From NCBI RefSeq assembly GCF_003324675.1, contig NZ_CP030918.1:2370001-2402000 (forward strand): a stretch of DNA of 32,000 nucleotides, given 5' to 3'. Below the pieces are notes generated by a model. The model was not told where the DNA came from, made no database searches, and saw only the letters and a program-made list of their open reading frames with translations. Source of the DNA: Paracoccus suum. GTDB lineage: Bacteria; Pseudomonadota; Alphaproteobacteria; Rhodobacterales; Rhodobacteraceae. Below are positions 362 through 23,700 of this stretch, piece after piece. Position 1 is the stretch's first letter; each line of letters begins with the position of its first letter. The translations under genes were made by a program, and so were the position numbers.

Positions 362-1027
362 TCAATCGCTCTCGGCGAGTCGCTGCAGGCTTTCGCGGGC
401 GAGCAGCCGGACCCGACCGCGCGCCTGGCTCACGAACCCGCGTTTCTGGAAGTCCTGCAGGACGCGGGACACGACTTCGCGCGCCGTGCCCAGCTCCCGG
501 GCGAGGTCGTCATGCGTCGCCGATACTTCGACAGCCGTGCCGGAGAGAGCGAGCAGCCTTGCCGCGAGGCGCACGTCGATCCGTCCGAAGGCCACCTCGT
601 CCACGACATGCAGGAGATCCAGCAGACGGCGCGAATAGGCCGCAAACACGAACTTGCGAAAGGCCGGTTCCTCCGCCGCCAGCAGATCGAAGGTCTCTTG
701 CGAGAGCGCAACGGCAACGAGCGCCGTTTCCGCCACCCCCTCGGCGTTGTAGGCCTCTTCGGCCAGCATGCAGGCCGTCGTCAGCACGCAGCTTTCACCC
801 GCCTCCACCCGGTATAGCACGATCTCCCGCCCCGACTCGGCCGTTTGCGAGACCCGGAGCGTTCCCTCGACCAGAAACATCAGGTTGTCGGGACGATTAT
901 CGGGGCTGAAGACGGTCTGGCCGCGCGCGTAGCGTGCGACCTGTGCACTGGCGAGCAGCCTGTCGCGCACCGTCCGGGGAAGACCGCGCGTACCCTGGAA
1001 CCGTTCGGTCCAGTCGCCGATGCTCAT
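362..1027 (-). CDS. Crp/Fnr family transcriptional regulator
   Basis: Start MSIGDWTERF at 1027 overlaps the upstream stop (ATGA). Has a cNMP-binding-like beta-roll (LMFLVEGTLRV..GREIVLYRVEAGESC) and a C-terminal HTH (THDDLARELGTAREVVSRVLQDFQKRGFV). The longer 287-aa ORF is a GC-rich extension. Confidence 0.8.
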   Translation of the reverse strand: MSIGDWTERFQGTRGLPRTVRDRLLASAQVARYARGQTVFSPDNRPDNLMFLVEGTLRVSQTAESGREIVLYRVEAGESCVLTTACMLAEEAYNAEGVAETALVAVALSQETFDLLAAEEPAFRKFVFAAYSRRLLDLLHVVDEVAFGRIDVRLAARLLALSGTAVEVSATHDDLARELGTAREVVSRVLQDFQKRGFVSQARGRVRLLARESLQRLAESD

Positions 1028-1494
1028 GTCGCGCTCCGCGTCGGCGCCGGGGCGCCTTTCTCGACGGTCGCGATGCGCCCCAAGAGCTGATCGCGATTGG
1101 CGGAAATGTCCGCCAGCGTGAGATCGTCGAGGACCGCCATGAACGCCCGGGTGGCCTCGTGGAGGCCCCGGGACAGCCGGCAAACCCCGATGAGGGGGCA
1201 TGTGTTCGACGCCGGATTGAAACATTCGACAACATCGAGCGGCCCCTCGGTCAACCTGATGACGTCACCCACGACGATCTCCTCGGCCGGACACGCAAGA
1301 CGGAACCCGCCGCCCCGCCCGCGCTGGGTCTTGACGAAGCCGGCGCGCCCCAGCTCGTGGACGATCTTCACGATGTGCGGCCGGGCCAGCCCATGCACCC
1401 GCACCACGTCATCGACGCGGATGAGATCCGGCGCCCTGAGTGCGGCAAGTTGAAGCGATCGAAGCGCGTAGTTGGAATATGCCGTGAGCTTCAT
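1024..1494 (-). CDS. Rrf2 family transcriptional regulator, NsrR-like (three-Cys Fe-S ligand motif)
   Basis: MKLTAYSNYALRSL N-terminal wHTH typical of Rrf2. Cys cluster ECFNPASNTCPLIGVCRL resembles the NsrR/IscR cluster ligands. Confidence 0.85.
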   Translation of the reverse strand: MKLTAYSNYALRSLQLAALRAPDLIRVDDVVRVHGLARPHIVKIVHELGRAGFVKTQRGRGGGFRLACPAEEIVVGDVIRLTEGPLDVVECFNPASNTCPLIGVCRLSRGLHEATRAFMAVLDDLTLADISANRDQLLGRIATVEKGAPAPTRSAT

Positions 1495-1543
1495 CTATGT
1501 CTCCCGATGAAACTTCTACCCAGCATATAACTTTTTTGCAAGC

Positions 1544-1562
1544 TGGGTGACAATGTCACTGA
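1544..1562. promoter_or_regulatory. second copy of the GTGAC-N3-GTCAC palindrome (TGGGTGACAATGTCACTGA), candidate operator
   Basis: Perfect core at 1547..1559. Lies in the middle of the 119-bp divergent region, about 59 nt from the Rrf2 start and about 61 nt from the peroxiredoxin start. Matches the 297..315 site (reverse orientation) at 17 of 19 positions. Confidence 0.5.
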
Positions 1563-1613
1563 ACGGCACGGCGAGGCGCGGTATCTGCCGGGCAACCCAC
1601 GAAAGGAAACATC

Positions 1614-2246
1614 ATGCCTCTGCTTCTCGGAGATATCGTTCCAGACTTCACCGCTGACACGACGCTCGGACCGATCTCGTTCCATGACTGGATCGGGGAT
1701 GACTGGGCCTTCTTCTTCAGCCACCCGGCGGACTTCACGCCGGTCTGCACCACCGAGATGGGCCGGACATCGCAACTCAGCGCCGAGTTCGACAAGCGCG
1801 GCGTCAAGCCGATCGGGCTCAGCACCGACACGGTCGACGAGCATCTGAAATGGATCGAGGATGTGAACGACACGCAGAACACGAGGCTGCGATTTCCCAT
1901 CGTCGCGGACCCGGATCTGAAGATCGCGCGGCTCTACGACATGATCCATCCGGCCCAGTCCGAGACCGCCGCCGTGCGCTCGGTCTTCATCATTGACAAC
2001 GCGAAGAAGCTGCGCCTGACGATGACCTACCCGATGAGTGTCGGGCGCAATTTCGATGAGATCCTGCGCGTGATCGACGCCTTGAAGACCGGTGACGCCA
2101 TGGGCGTGGCGCTGCCTGCAGACTGGCGTCCCGGCGACGAGGTCATCATCCCGACGTCGATCGACGACGTCGCGGCGAAGGGTCTCTTCCCGCAGGGCTG
2201 GACGACGCACCGTCCCTACTTGCGAACCACGCGCCTGCAAGATTGA
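1614..2246 (+). CDS. 1-Cys (Prx6-type) peroxiredoxin
   Basis: MPLLLGDIVPDF...WAFFFSHPADFTPVCTTE peroxidatic-Cys motif. GGAAAC-type RBS upstream. 210 aa. Confidence 0.9.
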   Translation: MPLLLGDIVPDFTADTTLGPISFHDWIGDDWAFFFSHPADFTPVCTTEMGRTSQLSAEFDKRGVKPIGLSTDTVDEHLKWIEDVNDTQNTRLRFPIVADPDLKIARLYDMIHPAQSETAAVRSVFIIDNAKKLRLTMTYPMSVGRNFDEILRVIDALKTGDAMGVALPADWRPGDEVIIPTSIDDVAAKGLFPQGWTTHRPYLRTTRLQD

Positions 2247-2768: not shown

Positions 2769-4217
2769 ATGCTCGCCTCCTTCGACGCAGTGCTCCTGGC
2801 CCGCATTCAGTTCGCCTTCACGGTGAGCTTCCACTTTCTCTTCCCGGCCTTCACCATCGGCCTCGCGAGCTACCTCGCGGTGCTCAACGGGCTGTGGCTC
2901 TGGACGAAGGATCACAAGTATCTCGATCTCTTCCGCTATTGGGTGAAGATCTTCGCGCTGGCCTTTGCGATGGGCGTCGTGTCGGGCATCGTGATGTCCT
3001 ACCAGTTCGGCACGAACTGGTCGGTTTTCTCCGACAAGGCCGGGCCGGTCATCGGTGCACCAATGGCCTACGAGGTGCTCTCGGCCTTCTTCCTGGAGGC
3101 GGGCTTCCTCGGGATCATGCTGTTCGGGCGCGAGCGCGTGGGGCCGGGTCTGCACATGGCCGCGACCGCAGCAGTGGCCTTCGGTACGTTTTTCTCGGCC
3201 TTCTGGATTCTCAGCGTGAACAGCTGGATGCAGACGCCCGCGGGATTCTCCATCGATCCGGACACCGGCCAGTTTCTGCCTGAGAACTTCTGGGAGATCA
3301 TCTTCAATCCCTCGTTCCCCTATCGCCTCATGCACACGGTGACGGCCGCCTACCTGACGACGGCCTTCATCGTGGGCGGCGTGGCGGCCTTCCACCTGTT
3401 GCGCCGCCGGCGGCGGGGCGAGGCAGTGTCCGAGGCCACCAAGACGATGTTCTCCATGGCGATGTGGATGGCTGCCATCGTGGCCCCGGTGCAGATCTTC
3501 CTAGGAGATCTGCACGGGATCAACACGCTGGAACACCAGCCCGCCAAGGTCATGGCCATGGAGGGCCACTATGAAAGCCATGACCACGGTGCACCGCTCT
3601 ATCTGTTCGGGATCCCCAATGACGAAACGCAAACCCTCGATTACGCGGTCGGCATACCGAAGCTGTCTTCGCTGATCCTCAAGCACGACCTCAATGCTCC
3701 GCTGGACGGTCTCGATACGATCCCCGACGACGAACAACCGCCCGTGGGCATCGTCTTCTGGTCCTTCCGTGTCATGGTCGCCGTGGGCTTTGCCATGCTG
3801 GGCATCGGAGCGTGGTCGCTCTGGGCGCGCTGGCGAGGGCGCCTCTTCGAGGCGCCGTGGCTGCACCGCGCCGCCCTGGCCATGGCGCCCTCAGGGTTGA
3901 TCGCGGTCCTGGCCGGATGGATCACCACCGAGGTCGGACGCCAGCCCTATACGATCTACGGGATGCTGCGCACGGCTGAGAGCGCGGCACCGCTCGACGC
4001 GGCTGCCGTCGGCACCTCGCTCATAGCCTTCATCGTGGTCTACTTCGCCGTCTTCGGCGCAGGCACCTTCTACATCATGCGTTTGATGAGCCGCCCGCCT
4101 GTCTTCGACGAACCGCGTCTCAAGGACGTGACCAAGGGACCAACTCGCACGGCCGGCATCACGCCGGCCATCGAGGAAGCCATGCGGCGCCCGGACGCCG
4201 CCCATCCGGGGGAGTGA
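2769..4217 (+). CDS. cydA: cytochrome bd-type ubiquinol oxidase subunit I (short Q-loop, CIO-like)
   Basis: LARIQFAFTVSFHFLFPAFTIGL N-terminus and the GWITTEVGRQPY motif. 482 aa, multi-TM. Confidence 0.9.
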   Translation: MLASFDAVLLARIQFAFTVSFHFLFPAFTIGLASYLAVLNGLWLWTKDHKYLDLFRYWVKIFALAFAMGVVSGIVMSYQFGTNWSVFSDKAGPVIGAPMAYEVLSAFFLEAGFLGIMLFGRERVGPGLHMAATAAVAFGTFFSAFWILSVNSWMQTPAGFSIDPDTGQFLPENFWEIIFNPSFPYRLMHTVTAAYLTTAFIVGGVAAFHLLRRRRRGEAVSEATKTMFSMAMWMAAIVAPVQIFLGDLHGINTLEHQPAKVMAMEGHYESHDHGAPLYLFGIPNDETQTLDYAVGIPKLSSLILKHDLNAPLDGLDTIPDDEQPPVGIVFWSFRVMVAVGFAMLGIGAWSLWARWRGRLFEAPWLHRAALAMAPSGLIAVLAGWITTEVGRQPYTIYGMLRTAESAAPLDAAAVGTSLIAFIVVYFAVFGAGTFYIMRLMSRPPVFDEPRLKDVTKGPTRTAGITPAIEEAMRRPDAAHPGE

Positions 4218-5364: not shown

Positions 5365-5785
5365 TTGGCGACCGCTTGTTGACCTTGAAAGAAGACTGAG
5401 TGCACCGGTTTATGCCCGTCGTTGTCATGATGTCGATCATGTTGCTCCTGCCATGGGGTGCATTCAGTCCGAACGACGCCAAGATCGGCGCACGAGACCT
5501 TTCCGTCAGAACGACAGTTGTCGCGTCGGACGTCCATGTAGCAACGCCACACCGGAAATGCCGTCTCGGTTCCCTGCCGGGATCGCCCTGTGGTCCGGAC
5601 CTTGCGGCGAACGTGCCCACTTTGGCAGATACCCACGGGCCTGCCGCCGCTACTCTGATCTTTCGATACAGCGAGTGGCTTGGCGACGATCTTGGCCGGA
5701 TACCTCGAACGGGACCTCCCCGACTTTCGTGACCGATCCCGCGCCCCAATGCGCAGCTTCAGTCACGATAACAAGGACAAGTCCC

Positions 5786-6484
5786 ATGCTCACACGTCGC
5801 ACCTTCGCTGCCCTCGGGGTGGCTGCGGGCCTCTCTGCCTGCGCCCGGCCCGAGACCGCCATCGTAACACGAGCGGTTCCGCCCCAACCGCAATATCCCC
5901 CGCTTCCAGACTTCTATGGCGCCATCACGGATGAGCCATATCCCGTGCCCGCGATTCCCGAGGGTTCAATTGCACCGGAATACTGGCGCCAGGAGGTCGA
6001 AAACCGGTGGCCTGGGCATGCCAGAGGCACGATCATCGTCGATCCGGACGCGGCCATGCTTCACTTCGTGGAAAGCCCGCTACAGGCTACGCGCTATGGC
6101 GTAAGCGTCGGTGCGGCGGGCTTTTCATGGGAAGGGACGGCACGCCTTCAGTTTTGTCGCCAATGGCCGCGCTGGAGAGTGCCCGACACGATGATCGCTC
6201 GCCAGCCGGAGCTTGAACCATACTCCGTGGCGAACGGCGGCATGGACCCGGGCGCTGGCAATCCGATGGGCGCCCGAGCTCTCTACCTGTTCCAGAACGG
6301 TGTTGACACGCTGTACCGTGTCCACGGGGATGCCTCTCCGAGAGAACTTGGCCGGGCGGTGTCGTCCGGCTGTATCAGGATGCTGAACCAGGATGTGATC
6401 CACTTGCACGAACGGGCCGTGCACGGAGCGTCAGTCATCGTTCTGCCGTCGATGAAGGCAGAAGGCTTTGCAGAACTCTACTGA
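5786..6484 (+). CDS. L,D-transpeptidase (YkuD domain) lipoprotein
   Basis: MLTRRTFAALGVAAGLSAC lipobox. Catalytic region YRVHGD...SSGCIRMLNQDV. Confidence 0.85.
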   Translation: MLTRRTFAALGVAAGLSACARPETAIVTRAVPPQPQYPPLPDFYGAITDEPYPVPAIPEGSIAPEYWRQEVENRWPGHARGTIIVDPDAAMLHFVESPLQATRYGVSVGAAGFSWEGTARLQFCRQWPRWRVPDTMIARQPELEPYSVANGGMDPGAGNPMGARALYLFQNGVDTLYRVHGDASPRELGRAVSSGCIRMLNQDVIHLHERAVHGASVIVLPSMKAEGFAELY

Positions 6485-7732: not shown

Positions 7733-8809
7733 TCAGCCGACCTTGCAGCCCCAGAAGGACGTGTGATCGGCAGCGAAGTAGCCGTCCGCGACCCGGAAAT
7801 ACCCCTGCAGCTCGACGGTATCGCCTGCGGTCAGCGGCACCATGGTCTGCAGCCAGATCGCGGTGGCGAGCGAGACATGGGTCGCGGAGATTTCACCGAG
7901 GGAGCCACGGATTTCAGTCGTGCCGTTCAGCACCAGCCGCCCCCGCATGCGCGCGGTCGTGCTGGCATTGACCTTGTAGAGCAGCGTCGCGCCGAAGAGG
8001 TAGGTGCCGTCCGCGGGCGCGACGAAATGGTTGTTTGCTGCGTCGAACGCCCCCTGGTCGTTGTAGTCGGTGTTGTTGAGGCCAATCTTCGTCCAGGTCC
8101 CGATGGCGACGTAGTTGTCGTAGTTCGTGTAGGCCTTGAAGCGCGGTAGCCGCGGCTGATCGACGATGCCGTTCGCGTTGTCGACGCTCAGCCCGTCGAA
8201 GAAGGTGCTGCCGTCGGCCGAGACCGCGAGGCGGAAGCGGTCGGAGCCGAATAGCCCCACGAGCGCCTTGGTCACAAAGTTGGTCTGGAGTGTCAGCCCG
8301 AGATCGTCGCCCGCAGCTTCCTTGTTCATGGTGTAGAACAGGTCGCCGGTGCCTCCCTCGGCTATGGTCCTTGCGGTCCAGAGCGCGGCGTTGAGCTTGG
8401 CCGAGAACGGGTTCGAGGCATCCGCCGTCGTGCCCAACCCGAGTAGCGCCATGTTCTGCAGCGCGGTCGGCGTCGTGCCGACCCAGCCCGTGCCGTCGTA
8501 GACCAATAGCAGGCCCTCGTCCTCGACCCACGCCCGCCAACCGGTCCGCGGCGGCAGACGCAGCCAGGCGCCATCAGTCCAGAGCGCGACGTTCAGGTCC
8601 CAGCCTGCCCAGTCGCCCGTTGCGGCGGAAGCGACGATGTATCGGTCGCCATCGACCGGAGAGCCGGGCGGCGCCGTCAGATCCCGGTCGAGCACCGAGA
8701 GCTGGACGAGCCCGTCGAGGATCCGCAGCGCCTCGTTGTGGGTGACATGCTTCTGGGCCTGCGCCGCCAGGATGTAGGGCAGCAGGAGATGGGTCGTGGT
8801 GTCGGACAT
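7733..8809 (-). CDS. tail fibre / receptor-binding protein: N-terminal DUF2793, C-terminal C1q/TNF-like jelly-roll
   Basis: N-terminus LLLPYILAAQAQKHVTHNEALRILD...GDRYIV...GDWAG is DUF2793-like. C-terminus FVAPADGTYLFGATLLY...LVLNG...GDTVELQ...HTSFWGCKV follows the gC1q pattern. Confidence 0.7.
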   Translation of the reverse strand: MSDTTTHLLLPYILAAQAQKHVTHNEALRILDGLVQLSVLDRDLTAPPGSPVDGDRYIVASAATGDWAGWDLNVALWTDGAWLRLPPRTGWRAWVEDEGLLLVYDGTGWVGTTPTALQNMALLGLGTTADASNPFSAKLNAALWTARTIAEGGTGDLFYTMNKEAAGDDLGLTLQTNFVTKALVGLFGSDRFRLAVSADGSTFFDGLSVDNANGIVDQPRLPRFKAYTNYDNYVAIGTWTKIGLNNTDYNDQGAFDAANNHFVAPADGTYLFGATLLYKVNASTTARMRGRLVLNGTTEIRGSLGEISATHVSLATAIWLQTMVPLTAGDTVELQGYFRVADGYFAADHTSFWGCKVG

Positions 8810-17150: not shown

Positions 17151-17825
17151 TGGAATGATCCATTTGTTCGTTGATCTTCGCCACCATCACCGCCTCGATC
17201 ACGGGCAGCAGTTCCGCCATGGCGAGCGGCGGCACGCCGAGCGCGTCACCGAGTGCCAGCGCCGCCGACATGTCCCAGCCGATCACCGCGCCGGGGAGCA
17301 CGCGGAGCTGGCCGCCGAGACGGCCGACCAGGTCCCGGACCTGCCAACCCTCATGCGTGAGCGGCCGGTTCAGCCGCGCCGGGCAGTCCGGGCAGGCTTG
17401 CGCGCGGCCCTCGTAGGGTGCGCAGGCTTCGCAGTATCGCTCGCCCCCGCCGAAGGACCACTCGGCGAGAGCGCGGAGGCGTTTTTTTCCTGTTCCAGCA
17501 GCAGGCCCTTGGAGACATAGGTCAACTGGAACGCCTCGAAGATCGGCCAGACATCGAGGAGCGCATCGATGGCCTCGGGGCTCGGGTCGATAGACTGGCC
17601 GTCGGCATCGCCGATGCCCTCCCAGGCGAGCACCGCCCGGCGCGCCAGTGCCTTGGCGAAGGCGACGGCGCGCTCCTCGTCAGATGCCTCCTCCGGCACG
17701 GTCTCGACGACCGGGTCGCTGCGTGTCGCCACCATCAGCGCTGTGGTCAGCGGGCGCAGCTGCACCCGGACGCCGGGGACGAGATCGTGCCAGCGTGGGG
17801 CGTTGGTCAGGTCGAGCGTCAGCAT
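17143..17825 (-). CDS. tail assembly chaperone -1 frameshift fusion (gpGT analogue), predicted
   Basis: A -1 slip at A_AAA_AAC (17487..17481) opens a stop-free 112-codon frame. It ends at TGA 17145..17143, overlapping the tape-measure GTG (17150). Checked codon by codon. Confidence 0.65.
17370..17825 (-). CDS. tail assembly chaperone (gpG analogue, zero-frame product)
   Basis: Start MLTLDLTNAPRW overlaps the tail-tube stop (TGATG). Acidic protein between the tube and tape-measure genes. Contains the slippery heptamer. Confidence 0.75.
   Translation of the reverse strand: MLTLDLTNAPRWHDLVPGVRVQLRPLTTALMVATRSDPVVETVPEEASDEERAVAFAKALARRAVLAWEGIGDADGQSIDPSPEAIDALLDVWPIFEAFQLTYVSKGLLLEQEKNASALSPSGPSAGASDTAKPAHPTRAARKPARTARRG
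17481..17487 (-). other. programmed -1 ribosomal frameshift heptamer A_AAA_AAC
   Basis: Zero-frame codons are GAA AAA AAC (E K N), so the X_XXY_YYZ phasing is correct. Plus strand reads gtttttttcc. Confidence 0.65.
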
Positions 17826-18763
17826 CAGTACGTCTCCACGTCGTTCACGAGGGTGGCGGTACACATCCGGCCGACGACGCTGTCGCGGGCGGCCTGCCAA
17901 TCGAAGGTCGCCTGCACGCCCTGCGGCCCGGAAATCTCGATCCGCGGGCGCGGCAGGTAGACGGCGTGGACGGTGAAGGTGAAGCTCTCGCCGGAGGGCA
18001 GCGCGTAGCCGAACTCGAGCTTGCACGGATCGCCGTTGATCGCCTGCGTCACCAATGTGCTGTCGGCGAAGCGGACCTCGATGGACCCGGTGAGCGCGGC
18101 GATGGACGGGTCCGCGCCGTCGATGCGGCCATCGTTCCGGATGGTCTCGATCCGGTCGAGGTTATTGGCGTAGGTGATGTCGGCCGAAATCACGTTGCCG
18201 AGGGCCGATCCATTCCGGGTGATCGATCCGTTGAAATGGCCGAACCTCTTCAGCTCCAGCGCGGCGGGTGTGCCGGCGCTAGAACTCGTGCCCACCGTCT
18301 CGCCCTGCGCGACCAGCCGTGCCGTTGCAGTCAACAGGCCCGAGCGCTGCATCTGCCAGGTCATTTGGTCGAGCACGCAGCCAGAATACATGGCAAAGCG
18401 CGGCACTTCGGGCATGCCGGTCTCGATGGACATGCTGGGCAGTGTCCACGCCCCCGACTGGAACTCGTGAGTCCAGGGGCCGGTGCCGGTGGTGGTTGGT
18501 GCGCCAAAGGCCGCCTTCAGCCAGAAGCCAAAGGCCTCCGCGTCGAGCGGCACGACGACATCGCCGTCGGCCGTCACCGCGTCCTTGATCGGCGCCAGCG
18601 GATCGCGGCCGTAGCCCAATAACTCCGAGTTCAGCAGCGGCTGTTCCGCGCCCAGCGAGGTGCTGGCGAAGGGCATCTTCGTGAAACCGCCGACAGGCGG
18701 CGTGCCATAGGTCGTCTCGAACGCAAGCGCCATCTGCGCCCGCGCCCCTTGGGCTCTTGCCAT
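17825..18763 (-). CDS. major tail (tube) protein
   Basis: 312 aa with AGGAG 6 nt upstream. Beta-rich. Position upstream of the chaperone and tape measure. Resembles Rhodobacterales phage tail tube proteins. Confidence 0.75.
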   Translation of the reverse strand: MARAQGARAQMALAFETTYGTPPVGGFTKMPFASTSLGAEQPLLNSELLGYGRDPLAPIKDAVTADGDVVVPLDAEAFGFWLKAAFGAPTTTGTGPWTHEFQSGAWTLPSMSIETGMPEVPRFAMYSGCVLDQMTWQMQRSGLLTATARLVAQGETVGTSSSAGTPAALELKRFGHFNGSITRNGSALGNVISADITYANNLDRIETIRNDGRIDGADPSIAALTGSIEVRFADSTLVTQAINGDPCKLEFGYALPSGESFTFTVHAVYLPRPRIEISGPQGVQATFDWQAARDSVVGRMCTATLVNDVETY

Positions 18764-18810: not shown

Positions 18811-19272
18811 GTGCCGCACATAAAGTTCATGCGCAGTACTCGTCCCAACTCCCTGCTCAGTGTTTTCGGTCGGTCGATCATCACCAGTATGATCGTTTCT
18901 CTCGCGATCGTGGTTCTTTCGGTTGGCCCCGTCTTGGGACAGACGAATACCGTGAGCGGCGCGGTGCGCTACGTGACGGACGGCGACACCTTCTCACTTC
19001 GCGGCGTTGAACGGCCAATCCGTGTCTGGGGCCTCGACGCTCCGGAGCGCAACGAGCGCGGCGCTTCCGCAGCGACGTCTACTCTGCGGCGGCTGGTCGC
19101 CGGACAAAGCCTGACCTGTCGCGTGCACGATGTCGACCGGTACGGACGGATCGTCGGGCAGTGCTTCCTCGCCGATGGCCGCGATGTCGCGGCCCAGATG
19201 ATCGCTGCCGGAGTGGCCCGTGAATACTGCTACTTCTCGGGCGGCTACTACGGAACCTGTCGCGGCAACTGA
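18811..19272 (+). CDS. secreted thermonuclease (staphylococcal nuclease/SNase homologue)
   Basis: TDGDTF, WGLDAPE and DRYGRIVG motifs match SNase Ca/catalytic residues. N-terminal signal or anchor (IVSLAIVVLSVGPVLG-QT). Start uncertain (GTG 18811, ATG 18829, ATG 18889). Opposite strand to the phage operon and lower GC. Confidence 0.8.
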   Translation: MPHIKFMRSTRPNSLLSVFGRSIITSMIVSLAIVVLSVGPVLGQTNTVSGAVRYVTDGDTFSLRGVERPIRVWGLDAPERNERGASAATSTLRRLVAGQSLTCRVHDVDRYGRIVGQCFLADGRDVAAQMIAAGVAREYCYFSGGYYGTCRGN

Positions 19273-19281
19273 CCGTCGGCT

Positions 19282-19701
19282 CTACCCAAGCGGGTCGGCC
19301 GTGGAAAAGTGAAGCATAACGGGGATCACCGCCGCCTTGAGGCTCGCGGCACCCTCGACTGGCAGGTCCACTACCCGCGGCGCTTCAGCCTCGACCCAGT
19401 CGCAGAGCCCGCCCAGCGTCCGGTCGGCGGCGAGTGCTGCACCGAGGCCGGCTACCAGCGTGTCTAAGGCAGCGTCACGGTCAGAACCCTGAACGACCGC
19501 CTCGATTTCGGCGCGGTGCTGGTAGTGATACCGCAGGGGCGACAACGTCACCTCCGGCTCCCCCGGCTCGCCGTCGCGCAAGATCATCAGGCCATCGGCC
19601 GGCACGCGCTCGGGCAGCACCTCGCCTCGAAGCGCGGTGGCGGGCAGTACCGAGAGTCGCGCGTGCAGCGCGGCGAGGATGGTTTCGCGCGGTGTGGGCA
19701 T
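19282..19701 (-). CDS. tail terminator / tail completion protein (DUF3168-like), tentative
   Basis: 139 aa, high GC, minus strand, between the neck genes and the tube gene. Sequence style matches small siphovirus neck/terminator proteins. Confidence 0.5.
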   Translation of the reverse strand: MPTPRETILAALHARLSVLPATALRGEVLPERVPADGLMILRDGEPGEPEVTLSPLRYHYQHRAEIEAVVQGSDRDAALDTLVAGLGAALAADRTLGGLCDWVEAEAPRVVDLPVEGAASLKAAVIPVMLHFSTADPLG

Positions 19702-19737
19702 GTGGTATTCGAACCCTGTTCCAGAGTAGGTTGAGGC

Positions 19738-20640
19738 TTGAAATATTTGAAGTTTGGCGAACTCCCGAAGTTTAATTCCACCACGGTGAAGGCTGCCTCA
19801 GAAAAGATTTCTGCGGCGATCAAGCTCGCTGAGCCTCATGCCGACCGCGCTCTTGATTGGGGACGAAGGCAGCAAGAGAGGGCGAGTTCGCACTTGCCGA
19901 ACGCCAGCGCGATTGAAGCATGGGCGCGGAAAAACGCAGAGCGCTATGACTGGCGCCCGAGGCCGGTATCGATCTCCTTGGAACATCTCGAGGAAACGCT
20001 CACGCAGATCGTATCAGCAATCCGCCAGACATCCGACCGAAGATCTCGGCTTTTCGTCAACGCGGTCATCGGCAAACTTGGCGGTGTTTTAACCGTGGGC
20101 GGGATCTCAGGCCTTGTCACCACGTTTGGCGCAGCATCAACTGGCGCGGCCTTAGCTACCCTGCATGGTGCCGCCGCAACGTCGGCGCTGCATTTCTGGA
20201 TAGGTTCTCTGGTCGGCGTTGGGGCCGTAGGCGGCAGCCTCATGTTGGTGGCAGGCGGTGTGGGCGCCGGAATTGCCGCAGGTTTTTGGGGCAAACGGAA
20301 GCTCTTTGGCAAGGCGCGTTCCGAAGTCGACTTGCAGGAGCATGAGAAGGCTATCCTTGTAGCATGCGTAACGCTGATCAACGCGACAAAGCAGCAACGA
20401 CAACTGAGCCAGACAGCCTCATCTGCAGAGATGCGGCTTGTCGCAGAACAAGTGCTCATTCCGCTGGCGAACCAGATCAACCAGCACTGGGATGATGCTT
20501 CCCTCAAAGAGAACGGAAAGTCCGAATGCGAACCATTCACGCGAAGACTGGCCTACCTGCAACGGCGCAAGCTCGATCAGTGCAGGGCCGAACTGGGCCG
20601 GATCGCGCTGGCAGCGATGGAGAAGGACGCGGCGGCCTGA
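19738..20640 (+). CDS. hypothetical membrane protein with central glycine-zipper hydrophobic core (cassette protein A)
   Basis: Maximal ORF of 300 codons. Only non-ATG starts are available (TTG 19738; TTG 19747 with GAGG 9 nt upstream; GTG 19786; TTG 19894). About 90 aa are Gly/Ala-rich and TM-like, flanked by helical charged regions. Lower GC. Confidence 0.55.
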   Translation: MKYLKFGELPKFNSTTVKAASEKISAAIKLAEPHADRALDWGRRQQERASSHLPNASAIEAWARKNAERYDWRPRPVSISLEHLEETLTQIVSAIRQTSDRRSRLFVNAVIGKLGGVLTVGGISGLVTTFGAASTGAALATLHGAAATSALHFWIGSLVGVGAVGGSLMLVAGGVGAGIAAGFWGKRKLFGKARSEVDLQEHEKAILVACVTLINATKQQRQLSQTASSAEMRLVAEQVLIPLANQINQHWDDASLKENGKSECEPFTRRLAYLQRRKLDQCRAELGRIALAAMEKDAAA

Positions 20641-20711
20641 CCCGAAGCGCTGCGGTCGTCGTTGCTGTCACCCTGCAGCGCCTGCTCGATGAACCCACTC
20701 GCTCCTGGTCG

Positions 20712-21350
20712 ATGGAAGAGGAACTTGTTCTCGATGCCGTAAGGCGGTCGGCGACGAACCTGAACGGTGCCACGACAGAGGAACTGGCCGCTTACATCTC
20801 TGAGCTCAATCCCGAACAGCTTCGAGGCGTCGTGTCCAACGTGAAGGGCATCTACCACGAGTTGCTTTTCGTCCATGCTGAAAACATCGACGCAGATGAC
20901 GTTGCCGCGCGGGTATTCGAGGCGACCAACCATCCCGGCGCAGATGTGGAGTTCATTGTTGACGGTGATGTCATCCATGCCGTTCAGCTAAAGGCAGTCG
21001 CCTCGCCAGCCGCGATCTTTGAGCATCTTGCCCGCTATCCGGACATCGAAATTGTCGCGACGGAAGAAGTGGCGGCTGTCGTTTCCGCTGCAAGTGGTTC
21101 AGGTTTCTCGAATGCGGCGATATCTGGCGATGTTTCACGCGTGTTCACCGAACTGCCGGGAGACAGTATGGCGGTCGAAATCGCAGAAGGTGCTGCAGCC
21201 TCCGCTCTGTTGGCGGGAGCCATCTCTGCGGCTCAGGTTCTGCGATCCGGCAAGGTTTCCCGGCAGCAGTTTGCGACGGCGTTTGGCGACGTTTCCGTAG
21301 GCGTCATAACGGCGACAGCATTGGACGTTCTCCTCGACGGACTGGCCTGA
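20712..21350 (+). CDS. hypothetical protein with Mrr/PD-(D/E)xK-like core and Ala/Gly-rich amphipathic C-terminus (cassette protein B)
   Basis: First ATG after the stop of A. E50 (YHELLF), D78 (HPGADVEF) and Q92-x-K94 (HAVQLKA) are spaced as in Mrr-type nucleases. The stop is 2 nt from the convergent phage gene stop. Confidence 0.5.
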   Translation: MEEELVLDAVRRSATNLNGATTEELAAYISELNPEQLRGVVSNVKGIYHELLFVHAENIDADDVAARVFEATNHPGADVEFIVDGDVIHAVQLKAVASPAAIFEHLARYPDIEIVATEEVAAVVSAASGSGFSNAAISGDVSRVFTELPGDSMAVEIAEGAAASALLAGAISAAQVLRSGKVSRQQFATAFGDVSVGVITATALDVLLDGLA

Positions 21351-21352
21351 TT

Positions 21353-21979
21353 TCAACGCCCCTCCACCCAGTTCGCCACGATCAGCCCCGGCACGCTGTC
21401 CAAAGCCCGGTCCGCGTCCCGCGCCAGATCCAGCCGCTTCGGCAGCTTGACCTGCGGCACCAGCAGGAAGATCGGCACCGTCGTGCGTCCGCGACCGGTC
21501 TTCGAGCGTGACGCAACCCCAAGCCCGCGGCTGTTCAGCCGGCCTTCGGCCACCAGCAGGCTCGGACCGAGCCGGCGGTAGACGAAGCGGAGACGCAACC
21601 CACGGCGGCGTTCCCATTCGCCGGGGGTGATCTTGGCGCCGCGCAGACCACGGCCGGCGGCCTCGGTCGGGATCGCGAGCCAGAACCCGTCTTTCGAGCG
21701 GATCAGCGGGCCGGTGTCGTGGGCCCCGACGACGACCGGGGCCTTGGACCAGACCAGCGCCGCGGCGTTAAGGCTCTCGCCGGCCTTCGGGTAGGTCTGG
21801 CTCCGGATCGAGTTGGCGAGCCGTCGGCCGAGCCCCGCACCAGTGATCTGCCCGCGCCAGGCGGTCTTGAGCCCGGTCCCGGCTTCGCGCATGGCAACTG
21901 TGACGGCCTTCTCGCCGGCCTTCACCTCGGCGGCCATGGCGGCGACGAGATCGGGGGTGATGTCGAGCTTCAGCTTCAT
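21353..21979 (-). CDS. phage neck/head-completion protein (HK97 gp10-like / DUF6441-like), tentative
   Basis: Start MKLKLDITPDL at 21979. The 455-aa ORF upstream part is shadow. Position follows the head-tail joining gene. Confidence 0.55.
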   Translation of the reverse strand: MKLKLDITPDLVAAMAAEVKAGEKAVTVAMREAGTGLKTAWRGQITGAGLGRRLANSIRSQTYPKAGESLNAAALVWSKAPVVVGAHDTGPLIRSKDGFWLAIPTEAAGRGLRGAKITPGEWERRRGLRLRFVYRRLGPSLLVAEGRLNSRGLGVASRSKTGRGRTTVPIFLLVPQVKLPKRLDLARDADRALDSVPGLIVANWVEGR

Positions 21980-21984
21980 CGCTG

Positions 21985-22296
21985 TCAGGCCGGGCGCAGG
22001 TCCACGGTCCAGACGAGCCGCTCGCGGTCGCGGACGGGTTCGCCCTGGATGAGGAAAGCCTCGCCGTCGATCTCGATGCGGTCGCCGGGACGGGGCTGGG
22101 GCACCTCGGCGAGGCGCAGATCCAGCCGGGTGGTCTCCGACCAGATGCGCGCGTCGCCGAAGTGCGTGACGTCGTCGGGCCGGCGCAGGATCGCGCGGAC
22201 CAGCGCGGGTGCGCCGCCCTCGGCGGTGTAGACGACGTCGCGCGCGAGATGCGCATCGGCGAAGAGCGCGTCGAGGGCGGCGGCGAAGGCGGTCAT
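21985..22296 (-). CDS. head-tail joining protein
   Basis: Start MTAFAAALDALF overlaps the capsid stop (TGATG). About 103 aa. C-terminal GDRIEIDGEAFLIQGEP..D...LVWTVDL pattern as in phage head-tail joining proteins. Confidence 0.65.
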   Translation of the reverse strand: MTAFAAALDALFADAHLARDVVYTAEGGAPALVRAILRRPDDVTHFGDARIWSETTRLDLRLAEVPQPRPGDRIEIDGEAFLIQGEPVRDRERLVWTVDLRPA

Positions 22297-23309
22297 CAGG
22301 TCCGCCTTGCCGAGCGCAGAACCTGCGGCCGGGTGCAGATCGGCAGCGGGTTGCTCTCGATCTCGAGCCGCACCCACTCGTCGCGATCCCGGTCGGGGAT
22401 CGTGCGTGCGTAGAGCGGCTGGCCGAGCGTGTTGACGGTCTCGAAGGTGTCAGCCGGGGCGTAGTAGATCTCGAAGAGCCCCTCGATGCCCTCGGGATAG
22501 AAGAACGCCTTGTCGGTCGGGACGGTGAAGCCCACCCCGCCCCGATAACGGCGGAAGGTGATGCCGCCGAAGCTGACCTCGTCGGCCACCCGGCCGCGCA
22601 GGTCGGCCGCGGCAGCGGTGTTGAGGTAGGTCTCCCGCACCTCCTTGTGCGCCACGAGATCGGCGAAGAAGGCCGAGCCGCATTCGGCGCGCACCTGCAC
22701 GGCGCCGGCCGAAAGCCCACCCATCGAGTCCTCCACGCTCTCGATCAGCGCCTGGCAGCGCTTGCGGAGCGCCCCCGAGGCCGGGCTTGCGTTGTCGAGG
22801 TCGAAGTCGATCTCGGCCGCCGGAGAGATGCCGAACTCGGTGAAGTAGTTCACCACCGTGGCGTGGTCCTTCGGGTCTTTCACCAGCCCCTGGATGCCAT
22901 TCAACAGGTGGTACTCGAAGGTCGTCTCGGCGTCCTGGCGGAGTTTGCGAAGCCGATACGCGACCTCGGTCTGCACCTGCTGGGTCGCGCTCTCCGAGCC
23001 GAAGTCGCGCACCGATTGGATCTCGGAGGCCCAGAGCACGTCCTGCTTCTTGAACTGTCGGCAGACGAAGGCGCGCATCTCGCGCCGGTCGGGCACCTGC
23101 TGCTCGTAGGCCGAGCCGCGCTCCGAGAACGGGATCAGCGAGAGCGTGCCGTCCCGGCTCTCGATCACGACGGTGCGGGAACGCACGCCGCGCGGGCTGA
23201 AGAGGTTCGAGCCCGAGAGCAACGCGGGCTTGTAGGGGATGTTCTCGAGAGCGCGGGTGAGCTCGACGATGGTGAAGGCATCGCCTTCGAAGATGTCCAT
23301 GGTGGCCAT
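22296..23309 (-). CDS. major capsid protein, lambda gpE family
   Basis: Start MATMDIFEGDAFT with GGAGG RBS. 337 aa. Follows the decoration gene as in lambda D-E. Confidence 0.88.
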   Translation of the reverse strand: MATMDIFEGDAFTIVELTRALENIPYKPALLSGSNLFSPRGVRSRTVVIESRDGTLSLIPFSERGSAYEQQVPDRREMRAFVCRQFKKQDVLWASEIQSVRDFGSESATQQVQTEVAYRLRKLRQDAETTFEYHLLNGIQGLVKDPKDHATVVNYFTEFGISPAAEIDFDLDNASPASGALRKRCQALIESVEDSMGGLSAGAVQVRAECGSAFFADLVAHKEVRETYLNTAAAADLRGRVADEVSFGGITFRRYRGGVGFTVPTDKAFFYPEGIEGLFEIYYAPADTFETVNTLGQPLYARTIPDRDRDEWVRLEIESNPLPICTRPQVLRSARRT

Positions 23310-23334
23310 GAGGATGCCTCCTGTCGGGATTGGG

Positions 23335-23700
23335 TCAGCGAACGAGGATGCCCGCGGCGAGCAGCGCCGTATGGGCGGCCGCGATCTCCCCCTCGCTGGG
23401 CGTACCCGCGAAGACGAGGTCGTGGCGGTTGACGATGGCGGGACCGCGGAGGACCGCGACGGCCGGTGCGTCGCCACCGGACGCATCCGCCTTGCCCCAG
23501 AGCACGGCGACGGCGGTCTCGGTGCCGTCGACGGCCGCCGGGTCGTGTGCGGCGTACTTGTCCGACGCAGTGATCTTGCCGAGCACGGTGCCGGGCTCGA
23601 GGGTGCCCGCGGCGACGGTGATCGTCTCGCGGGTGTAGTCGCGGAAGGCTTCCCAGACGAGGAAGCCCCCGGGGTGCGTGCCTTCGACGAGCGTGGTCAT
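23335..23700 (-). CDS. head decoration protein (gpD-like)
   Basis: 121 aa. Lies between the protease and the gpE-type capsid gene. Sequence style matches gpD family proteins. Confidence 0.75.
   Translation of the reverse strand: MTTLVEGTHPGGFLVWEAFRDYTRETITVAAGTLEPGTVLGKITASDKYAAHDPAAVDGTETAVAVLWGKADASGGDAPAVAVLRGPAIVNRHDLVFAGTPSEGEIAAAHTALLAAGILVR

Follow-up and report, generated by a model that had tools for sequence, protein, structure and literature searches.

A prophage-borne two-gene cassette of Paracoccus suum that pairs a Gly-zipper membrane protein with a nuclease-like protein, a candidate defence module at a variable cargo junction

HK97 gp15 and lambda rexAB are prophage morons, and among the cargoes of prophage hotspots and morons known elsewhere some act in defence or exclusion and some consist of a membrane protein and a cytoplasmic partner. 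The hotspots of P2 and P4 prophages hold variable foreign genes, often on the opposite strand, with many alternative cargoes at one site (PMC9122126). PDC-M72 and PDC-M09 are defence candidates that were found embedded in BREX, DISARM or type I restriction-modification (RM) loci (Payne et al., bioRxiv 10.1101/2024.01.29.577857). SNIPE, a GIY-YIG nuclease bound to the membrane, cleaves phage DNA as it is injected (PMC13190303), and DUF4365 is a PD-(D/E)xK nuclease with a QxK active site, Q62/K64 (PMC10810196). Here we compare with these systems a pair of plus-strand genes, A and B, that lie within the minus-strand structural module of a siphovirus-type prophage. The stretch of DNA analysed, hereafter the window, comprises 32,000 nucleotides (nt) of the Paracoccus suum chromosome (contig NZ_CP030918.1, positions 2,370,001 to 2,402,000), and protein A of the window is 100% identical to WP_162784749.1.

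The A-B cassette is a true moron, and as a prophage-borne module it is a candidate for a role in defence. We place the probability that it forms a defence or exclusion system at about 0.5, and hold the details of its mechanism less firmly. An earlier note on this DNA had proposed a defence or exclusion cassette of a novel kind, and parts of that interpretation survive our analysis, namely the foreign moron and the description of a membrane protein with a nuclease-like partner; the recurrence of the pair in defence islands also supports it. Its other parts, namely an unrecognised family, a nuclease fold and the use of prophage position as evidence, are unsupported or overstated. As far as we searched, the new observations are the prophage hotspot, the specific pairing, the series of fused relatives and the upstream start of B. 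Literature searches returned no characterisation of PDC-M72, PDC-M09 or Paracoccus prophage morons, neither candidate being named, and no experiment on the A-B family was found.

Both halves of the pair belong to families that are already listed as defence candidates, and A-B is thus not an unrecognised family, as had been claimed when neither protein could be assigned to a named one. B matches the PADLOC model PDC-M72B at 1.7e-32 (profile positions 3-164 of 193). A matches PDC-M09A at 5e-11, where only residues 123-229, the Gly-rich transmembrane part, align (profile 117-231 of 282). Since A gave no match to PDC-M72A and B none to PDC-M09B at E <=1, the window pair corresponds to neither two-gene definition, these being FAM_01979>>FAM_01904 for PDC-M72 (31 occurrences) and FAM_02775>>FAM_02807 for PDC-M09 (380 occurrences). 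Like A-B, both candidates are two-gene, same-strand cassettes, with B covering most of M72B and the transmembrane part of A matching M09A. They differ in that the window mixes an M09A-like with an M72B-like protein, and the candidates themselves are without a published mechanism. The pair in the window is a related, unlisted combination. Neither A nor B had a significant match in Pfam, NCBIfam or PHROGs.

A and B form a mobile functional unit of two genes, which in many other bacteria are fused into one. Scanning one genome for each species in a pattern-limited way, we found B relatives in 128 species and kept 78 loci; an A relative stands directly upstream of B, on the same strand, in about 68 of them. 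A-B loci span Alpha-, Beta- and Gammaproteobacteria, Bacteroidota and one metagenome-assembled genome (MAG) of Chlamydiales. When the B family was gathered by exhaustive profile search at E <=0.001, it comprised 1015 cluster representatives (clusters at 50% identity), and 62 of the 149 top representatives, about 40%, are A-B fusions. These proteins of 440-660 amino acids (aa) consist of the transmembrane region and C-domain of A in their N-terminal part and of B in their C-terminal part, and they match both of the PADLOC models hit by the separate proteins. The ratio of nonsynonymous to synonymous substitution rates (dN/dS) is 0.06-0.23 for A and B together and 0.11-0.23 for A alone, similar to that of the flanking virion genes and indicative of purifying selection.

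The organisation of the pair could also be that of an addiction or toxin-antitoxin-like module, in which one protein is toxic, the other neutralises it and the two together stabilise their mobile element. A compact two-gene operon with a stop/start overlap, found on prophages, on islands resembling integrative and conjugative elements and beside transposases, would suit such a module, and toxin-type cargo (HipA_C, RES) occurs at the same prophage junction. However, fusion into one polypeptide in 62 of 149 representatives is atypical for toxin-antitoxin pairs, and we down-weight this explanation because such fusions are frequent. Known toxin or antitoxin families in Pfam and NCBIfam gave no match to either protein, and both proteins are large, at 237-300 aa. 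We consider an addiction module quite improbable.

The genomic neighbourhoods of A-B are the usual picture of a gene living in mobile and defence islands. Most of the species loci (67 of 78) lie outside phage structural regions, and the pair recurs in islands with GmrSD, type I RM, AbiJ, NERD, Mrr, integrase and conjugation genes. One such island contains GmrSD_N-SLFN, AAA_21, transposases and two integrases. AAA_15/21, AbiJ and DUF2513 stand directly upstream of the pair in an island with MobA; a 676-aa AAA_15/21 protein and AbiJ lie near A-B at locus L179. Another locus has UvrD with NucS_C, GmrSD_N and YgjP-like genes upstream, and at yet another an integrase lies two genes downstream. We annotated 147 immediate neighbours from about 55 non-phage loci with Pfam and PADLOC. 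The commonest Pfam families, as raw counts, were phage integrase (7), DEAD/ResIII (5), the type IV secretion system coupling protein (3) and Fic (3), with NERD, Methylase_S, HSDR_N, Mrr_cat, SWI2_SNF2 and HNH at two each. PADLOC matches among the neighbours include SoFic, PDC-S24, PDC-S02, type I S and R subunits and mad3/mad5, and housekeeping enzymes are also present.

A 583-aa ATPase of the AAA_21/AAA_15 type is encoded divergently just upstream of A-B at three loci (L013 6954-8705, L015 6972-8720 and L182 7011-8762, all on the minus strand). It is 78-100% identical between loci, partial in L022 and L045 and not in the window, and it is found in an A-B clade that is 60-67% identical to the window pair. 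It may be a third A-B component or a co-travelling single-gene system.

The same neighbourhoods bear on the idea that A-B is lysogenic-conversion cargo with a function outside defence, for example in envelope stress or in DNA uptake or processing, which merely shares islands with defence genes. In two metagenome-derived genomes (L178 9123-10738 and L180 8964-10591) the pair sits between ilvB, encoding the acetolactate synthase large subunit, and a major facilitator superfamily (MFS) gene, with no mobile-element or defence genes nearby, in what looks like a stably inherited islet. This islet favours a non-defence role, as do the hydrolases, chromate and EamA transporters, decarboxylase and GNATs at the prophage junction and the standing of PDC-M72 and PDC-M09 as candidates only. 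We nevertheless think this role rather unlikely. The pair recurs beside restriction, abortive infection (Abi), GmrSD and ATPase genes and on integrative/conjugative elements, its distribution is patchy across phyla, and it was their location inside BREX, DISARM or type I RM loci that first brought its relatives to notice.

In the window, the cassette occupies a junction between a DUF6441 gene and a tail terminator gene that are adjacent in the isolated Rhodobacter phage RcKemmy and Synechococcus phage Sc-Yong805-1. We surveyed 80 IMG/VR contigs with the closest DUF6441 (81-97% identity; loci L087-L166), 71 of which contain both flanks. The junction is empty in six of these sister contigs, carries A-B in one and carries other inserts in 64. 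The other inserts measure 461-3239 bp and have a G+C content of 0.48-0.67 (below 0.64 in all but two) versus 0.61-0.72 in the flanks. Hotspot cargo fills the space from immediately behind the DUF6441 stop up to the terminator ATG, and we found no conserved intergenic sequence or repeats at these boundaries. The 79 cargo open reading frames (ORFs) of at least 100 aa form 68 clusters, most without a Pfam or PADLOC match; 43 of these ORFs run against the virion genes and 36 run with them. Recognisable cargoes include alpha/beta hydrolases, a chromate transporter, an EamA transporter, a pyridoxal phosphate (PLP) decarboxylase, HipA_C, RES, NYN, QueC, a CdiA-CT RNase A-like toxin, GNATs, PadR and YkuD. 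The few with PADLOC matches are QueC, PDC-S31, a type IV restriction endonuclease, a DrmC-like protein, NYN and ZacB.

A-B itself is found at exactly this junction in 11 of the 78 species loci, in all ten B-carrying IMG/VR contigs and in metagenome contigs L003-L005, its carriers including Sagittula salina, a P. denitrificans MAG, Paracoccus sp. p4-l81, Yoonia vestfoldensis and Tabrizicola. Among junction copies A is 54-95% identical and the flanking virion proteins are 69-100% identical. Compared with the P2 and P4 hotspots, this one belongs to a Rhodobacterales siphovirus with a lambda-like head and a tail resembling that of a gene transfer agent (GTA), lies between DUF6441 and the tail terminator, and holds mixed cargo that includes metabolic genes. 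This hypervariable site may yield new accessory or defence genes from Rhodobacterales prophages. Because it takes any accessory gene, position alone is no argument for defence. The prophage location had been read as a sign of defence, and the moron is indeed genuine, but the same junction also receives hydrolases, transporters, a decarboxylase, toxin-like genes and unknowns.

That the cassette is foreign to the virion module is evident from the adjacency of its flanks in isolated phages, from its presence in a single sister contig out of 71, and from its composition. Its G+C content is 0.584 versus 0.705 in the flanking structural genes, and its G+C at third codon positions (GC3) is 0.62-0.64 versus 0.80-0.90; the hand counts that first pointed to this drop (27/60, 33/60 and 41/60) proved exact. 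Location inside the neck/tail module, together with the weak holin-like matches of A (E >=0.08), might still suggest that the opposite-strand cassette encodes a component of the virion, of its assembly or of lysis. We reject such a role on distribution and regard it as effectively refuted. B occurs in none of 50,697 GenBank phage records, A-B is absent from 70 of the 71 sister contigs and clearly is not a part of the structural operon that all relatives conserve, 67 of the 78 species loci are outside a phage structural context, PHROG matches are lacking, and the composition is foreign.

Protein A has its first ATG at codon 168, in line with the observation that a TTG or GTG start is needed for want of an ATG in the first ~170 codons. 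GenBank AXC50268.1 (DRW48_11655) holds only the last 132 aa, and the metagenome gene callers on L003-L005 likewise report this shorter version; RefSeq WP_162784749.1, a 'hypothetical protein', runs the full 300 aa from a TTG. The glycine-zipper-like hydrophobic core described in the earlier note is present (Table 1). It comprises two strongly hydrophobic segments, at residues ~105-129 and 153-184 (Kyte-Doolittle hydropathy over 19 residues, KD19, about 1.7-1.8), which are bracketed by basic clusters, RRSR before and GKRKLFGKAR after. An AlphaFold2 (AF2) model, with a mean predicted local distance difference test score (pLDDT) of 64, is all-helical, and its Gly-zipper hairpin lies between helical N- and C-domains. 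By the positive-inside rule, the flanking basic clusters would make both of these domains cytoplasmic. Conservation in A is highest in the Gly-zipper transmembrane region. Foldseek comparison of the model with the PDB gave no match below E 0.08, and the weak Pfam matches of A are to holin-like and membrane families at E >=0.08.

The start of B lies upstream of the ATG at 20712 from which NCBI (WP_114076587.1, 'hypothetical protein') and the earlier note had called a protein of 212 aa. The 25 codons that precede this ATG, LTRSAAVVVAVTLQRLLDEPTRSWS, are conserved in homologues down to 55% identity, and over 20637-20711 the proportion of nonsynonymous differences (pN) is 0.09-0.17 versus 0.56-0.66 for synonymous ones (pS). 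The upstream codons are therefore conserved as coding sequence, and B is about 237-256 aa long, the options being CTG 20637 (237 aa) and GTG 20580 (256 aa). In relatives the stop of A overlaps a TTG, GTG or ATG with which B starts (TTGA, GTGA, ATG-TTGA), and the window and several sister copies have CTGA at the conserved position (20637-20640). Conservation of the upstream codons, together with the CTGA in the window, thus indicates that B would be made either by coupled re-initiation at a non-canonical CTG or from GTG 20580.

Residues of B are numbered here by the 237-aa version, so that the E50, D78, Q92 and K94 of the earlier note become E75, D103, Q117 and K119. All four exist and are among the best-conserved positions of the family. 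Across 65 diverse members Q117 and T142 are invariant, and K70, G71, H74, E75, G101, D103, L118, K119 and E144 are conserved in at least 90%. The AF2 model of B (mean pLDDT 58) has a confident N-terminal helical domain, a core with the order helix, three strands, helix, strand (pLDDT about 57-79), and a poorly predicted Ala-rich C-terminal helical hairpin. In this model E75 lies in helix H59-83, D103 at the start of strand E104-108 and Q117-x-K119 at the end of strand E111-117. B has the residues of a PD-(D/E)xK site, a helix-borne Glu followed by a conserved Asp and a QxK on successive strands. The layout, in which the Asp opens strand 2 and the QxK ends strand 3, is that of the Mrr/DUF4365 'D...QxK' variant. 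DUF4365 is also the most recurrent weak Pfam match of the B family (6 of 65 members, best E 0.028), and ranks 2 and 4 among weak BFVD matches are labelled 'restriction endonuclease' and 'PD-(D/E)XK'.

The D...QxK variant is shared, at non-significant levels of similarity, with DUF4365 (DREN) of the short-pAgo system SPARDA and with Mrr_cat of type IV restriction enzymes. B differs from these in lacking both an APAZ or Argonaute partner and the N-terminal DNA-binding domain of Mrr, and it has extras of its own in the N-terminal helical domain and the C-terminal hydrophobic hairpin. Matches in the PDB to FabI, annexin and designed helical repeats run through the Ala-rich C-terminus, and we judge them compositional. 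A profile of the C-terminal half (residues about 150-237; 21084-21347) reaches E values down to 3e-11 against de novo designed helical repeats, which we rejected as homology and attribute to a compositional likeness of Ala-rich helical hairpins. Judged from conserved residues and the predicted model, it is likely that B has a PD-(D/E)xK nuclease fold. Of the earlier proposal of a nuclease-like B, the E...D...QxK motif stands, but the fold is without any significant profile or structure match. The description of a membrane protein joined by a nuclease-like protein fits the hydrophobicity profile and the conserved motifs.

These features suggest a mechanism in which A would insert in the inner membrane by its Gly-zipper hairpin, with both helical domains on the cytoplasmic side, and B would dock on A. 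Translation of B would probably be coupled to termination of A at the CTGA overlap, and in fused relatives B would be covalently tethered to the membrane. B, as a putative Mrr/DUF4365-like QxK-type PD-(D/E)xK nuclease using E75, D103 and Q117-x-K119, would act within the A-B complex to cut foreign DNA at or near the membrane during infection, thus protecting the lysogen or any island host. Since fused relatives would tether B permanently, B may work at the membrane and not after release. Such tethering would keep B away from the nucleoid and could make A-B a functional analogue of SNIPE. The logic proposed to be shared by the two is an inner-membrane anchor joined to a cytoplasmic nuclease, where tethering may spare the chromosome while holding the nuclease at the site of DNA entry. 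SNIPE has been demonstrated to act in this manner (PMC13190303), and when it lacks its transmembrane domain it is toxic and chromosomal DNA breaks arise. Their parts are different: SNIPE combines a single-pass transmembrane segment with DUF4041 and GIY-YIG domains, whereas the hairpin of A-B is a Gly-zipper, its helical domains are unrelated and its core is PD-(D/E)xK-like, and neither A nor B gave a Pfam or PADLOC match of the SNIPE kind. More tentatively, at somewhat less than even odds, A-B and its fused relatives might represent a widespread, uncharacterised family of membrane-tethered QxK PD-(D/E)xK nucleases that defend cells, at the inner membrane, against incoming phage or plasmid DNA, with further new defence or lysogenic-conversion genes hidden among the hotspot cargo.

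Several observations weigh against a nuclease-based defence system. In comparisons of B with known nucleases, hhalign of the family against the Mrr_cat alignment (E. coli Mrr relatives) produced a lone alignment that sets D103 and QLK on Mrr's D and QAK at a probability of 0.27%, which is not significant. Foldseek of the B model gave E >=0.4 throughout against the PDB and E >=0.08 against BFVD, and PDB sequence searches with B found no nuclease. The AF2 models are mediocre, as their mean scores of 58 and 64 indicate, with poorly predicted transmembrane and C-terminal regions. At the locus itself, B is without a canonical start codon at the conserved position, a promoter scan of the cassette found none, and the window pair fits neither PADLOC definition, PDC-M72 and PDC-M09 being themselves only candidates. 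On the ecological side, the hotspot holds much cargo unrelated to defence, some A-B copies stand among housekeeping genes, and the counts of defence neighbours are raw.

Part of this evidence would fit Rex-like abortive infection instead. A would then be the effector, its Gly-zipper helices oligomerising to a pore that depolarises the membrane on infection, and B a sensor or regulator whose conserved polar residues bind a ligand or nucleic acid without cleavage. Such a system would account for the Gly-zipper region being the best-conserved part of A as well as the part shared with PDC-M09A, for the holin-like and membrane character of the weak Pfam matches of A, and for the lack of a significant nuclease match for B. 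It is less easily reconciled with the near-invariant E75, D103, QxK and E144 of B, which look catalytic, or with A, which resembles no known pore former and shows just two clear hydrophobic segments. PADLOC gave no match to RexA or RexB-type models, and no homology of A-B to its RexA, RexB or gp15 models was found. We regard a Rex-like system as unlikely, and a membrane-tethered nuclease remains the mechanism we favour for A-B.

The coordinates of the cassette and its surroundings are given in Table 1. The structural module of the prophage spans ~8.8 kb to 28.5 kb of the window on the minus strand, as assigned from Pfam and PHROG matches in the window plus the Pfam annotation of one sister contig. 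It includes genes for a GpA-like terminase, a portal, a ClpP-type protease, an HDPD decoration protein, a tape measure and GTA-like distal tail proteins. The presence of host genes, cydA and one for an L,D-transpeptidase-like protein, sets the tail end of the prophage near 7.7-8.8 kb. A 358-aa ORF at 7733-8809 (minus strand) matches PDB chain 8gtc_S (1.6e-13), which its depositors labelled 'Ribonuclease III'. Both plus-strand ORFs and both of their flanks were recovered as first described, and the tight junctions of 36 nt and 2 nt (21351-21352, between the convergent stops of B and DUF6441) were reproduced. A consensus scan, which is crude for Alphaproteobacteria, detected no terminator-like or sigma-70-like site inside the cassette or on either side of it, in agreement with the statement that no terminator fits at the junctions. 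When the sequences upstream of A in sister prophages were aligned, no clear common promoter emerged.

Table 1. Features of the cassette and its surroundings in the window
Feature	Position	Strand	Basis or remark
cydA (cytochrome bd subunit I) and L,D-transpeptidase-like host genes	2769-4217, 5453-6484	+	cydA 6.7e-79
Phage_tube_2 (tail tube)	17825-18763	-	Pfam/PHROG
SNase/thermonuclease-family gene, second opposite-strand moron	18811-19272	+	between tail tube and tail terminator genes
Tail terminator gene, conserved hotspot flank	19282-19701	-	phrog_4204, 1.1e-40
Divergent 36-nt gap, terminator start to A start	19702-19737	.	consensus promoter not found
Gene A	19738-20640	+	300 aa, TTG start; alternatives in frame TTG 19747, GTG 19786
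Hydrophobic Gly/Ala-rich core of A, residues about 104-184	20047-20289	+	hydrophobicity profile; segment matching PDC-M09A
Gene B, preferred call	20637-21350	+	237 aa from CTG overlapping TGA of A
N-terminal 25 codons of B, left out by 212-aa call	20637-20711	+	LTRSAAVVVAVTLQRLLDEPTRSWS; protein-level conservation
Core of B, predicted alpha-beta-beta-beta-alpha-beta	20811-21074	+	AF2, conservation; matches PDC-M72B
Core residues of B: H74-E75; D103; Q117-L-K119	20856-20861; 20943-20945; 20985-20993		
C-terminal Ala/Gly-rich pair of weakly hydrophobic helices of B	21162-21347	+	KD19 maxima 1.5-1.7; pLDDT <45
DUF6441 neck or minor tail gene, conserved hotspot flank	21353-21979	-	PF20039, 1.6e-51
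Phage_attach	21985-22377	-	Pfam/PHROG
Major capsid protein E	22296-23486	-	Pfam/PHROG

The virion operon had been described as otherwise uninterrupted, which does not hold, since the SNase-family gene is a second plus-strand interruption. Its product, AXC50266.1, matches PF00565 at 5.8e-10 and the PADLOC model C3a212 'SNc+LTD' at 7e-7. The protein has an N-terminal hydrophobic signal or anchor, which suggests an exported nuclease. The gene occurs in some sister prophages only, for example L087, L092, L095, L101, L106 and L109. In the sister prophage L005, which has both A-B and the SNase gene, an IS110-family transposase (1003-1944, plus strand) lies beside the tail tube gene.

What A-B means for its hosts depends on its phenotype. 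If none is found, the A-B locus would be one more hypothetical moron. If A-B protects against phage, PDC-M72 and PDC-M09 would become one interpretable family, built from a membrane anchor and a QxK nuclease. The proposed mechanism, if true, would provide a second and unrelated case of the SNIPE principle, defence at the site of DNA entry. Whatever A-B does, the hotspot junction is a ready catalogue for the discovery of accessory genes. A defensive A-B would also offer a tractable prophage-borne system for marine Rhodobacterales, in which phage defence has been little studied.

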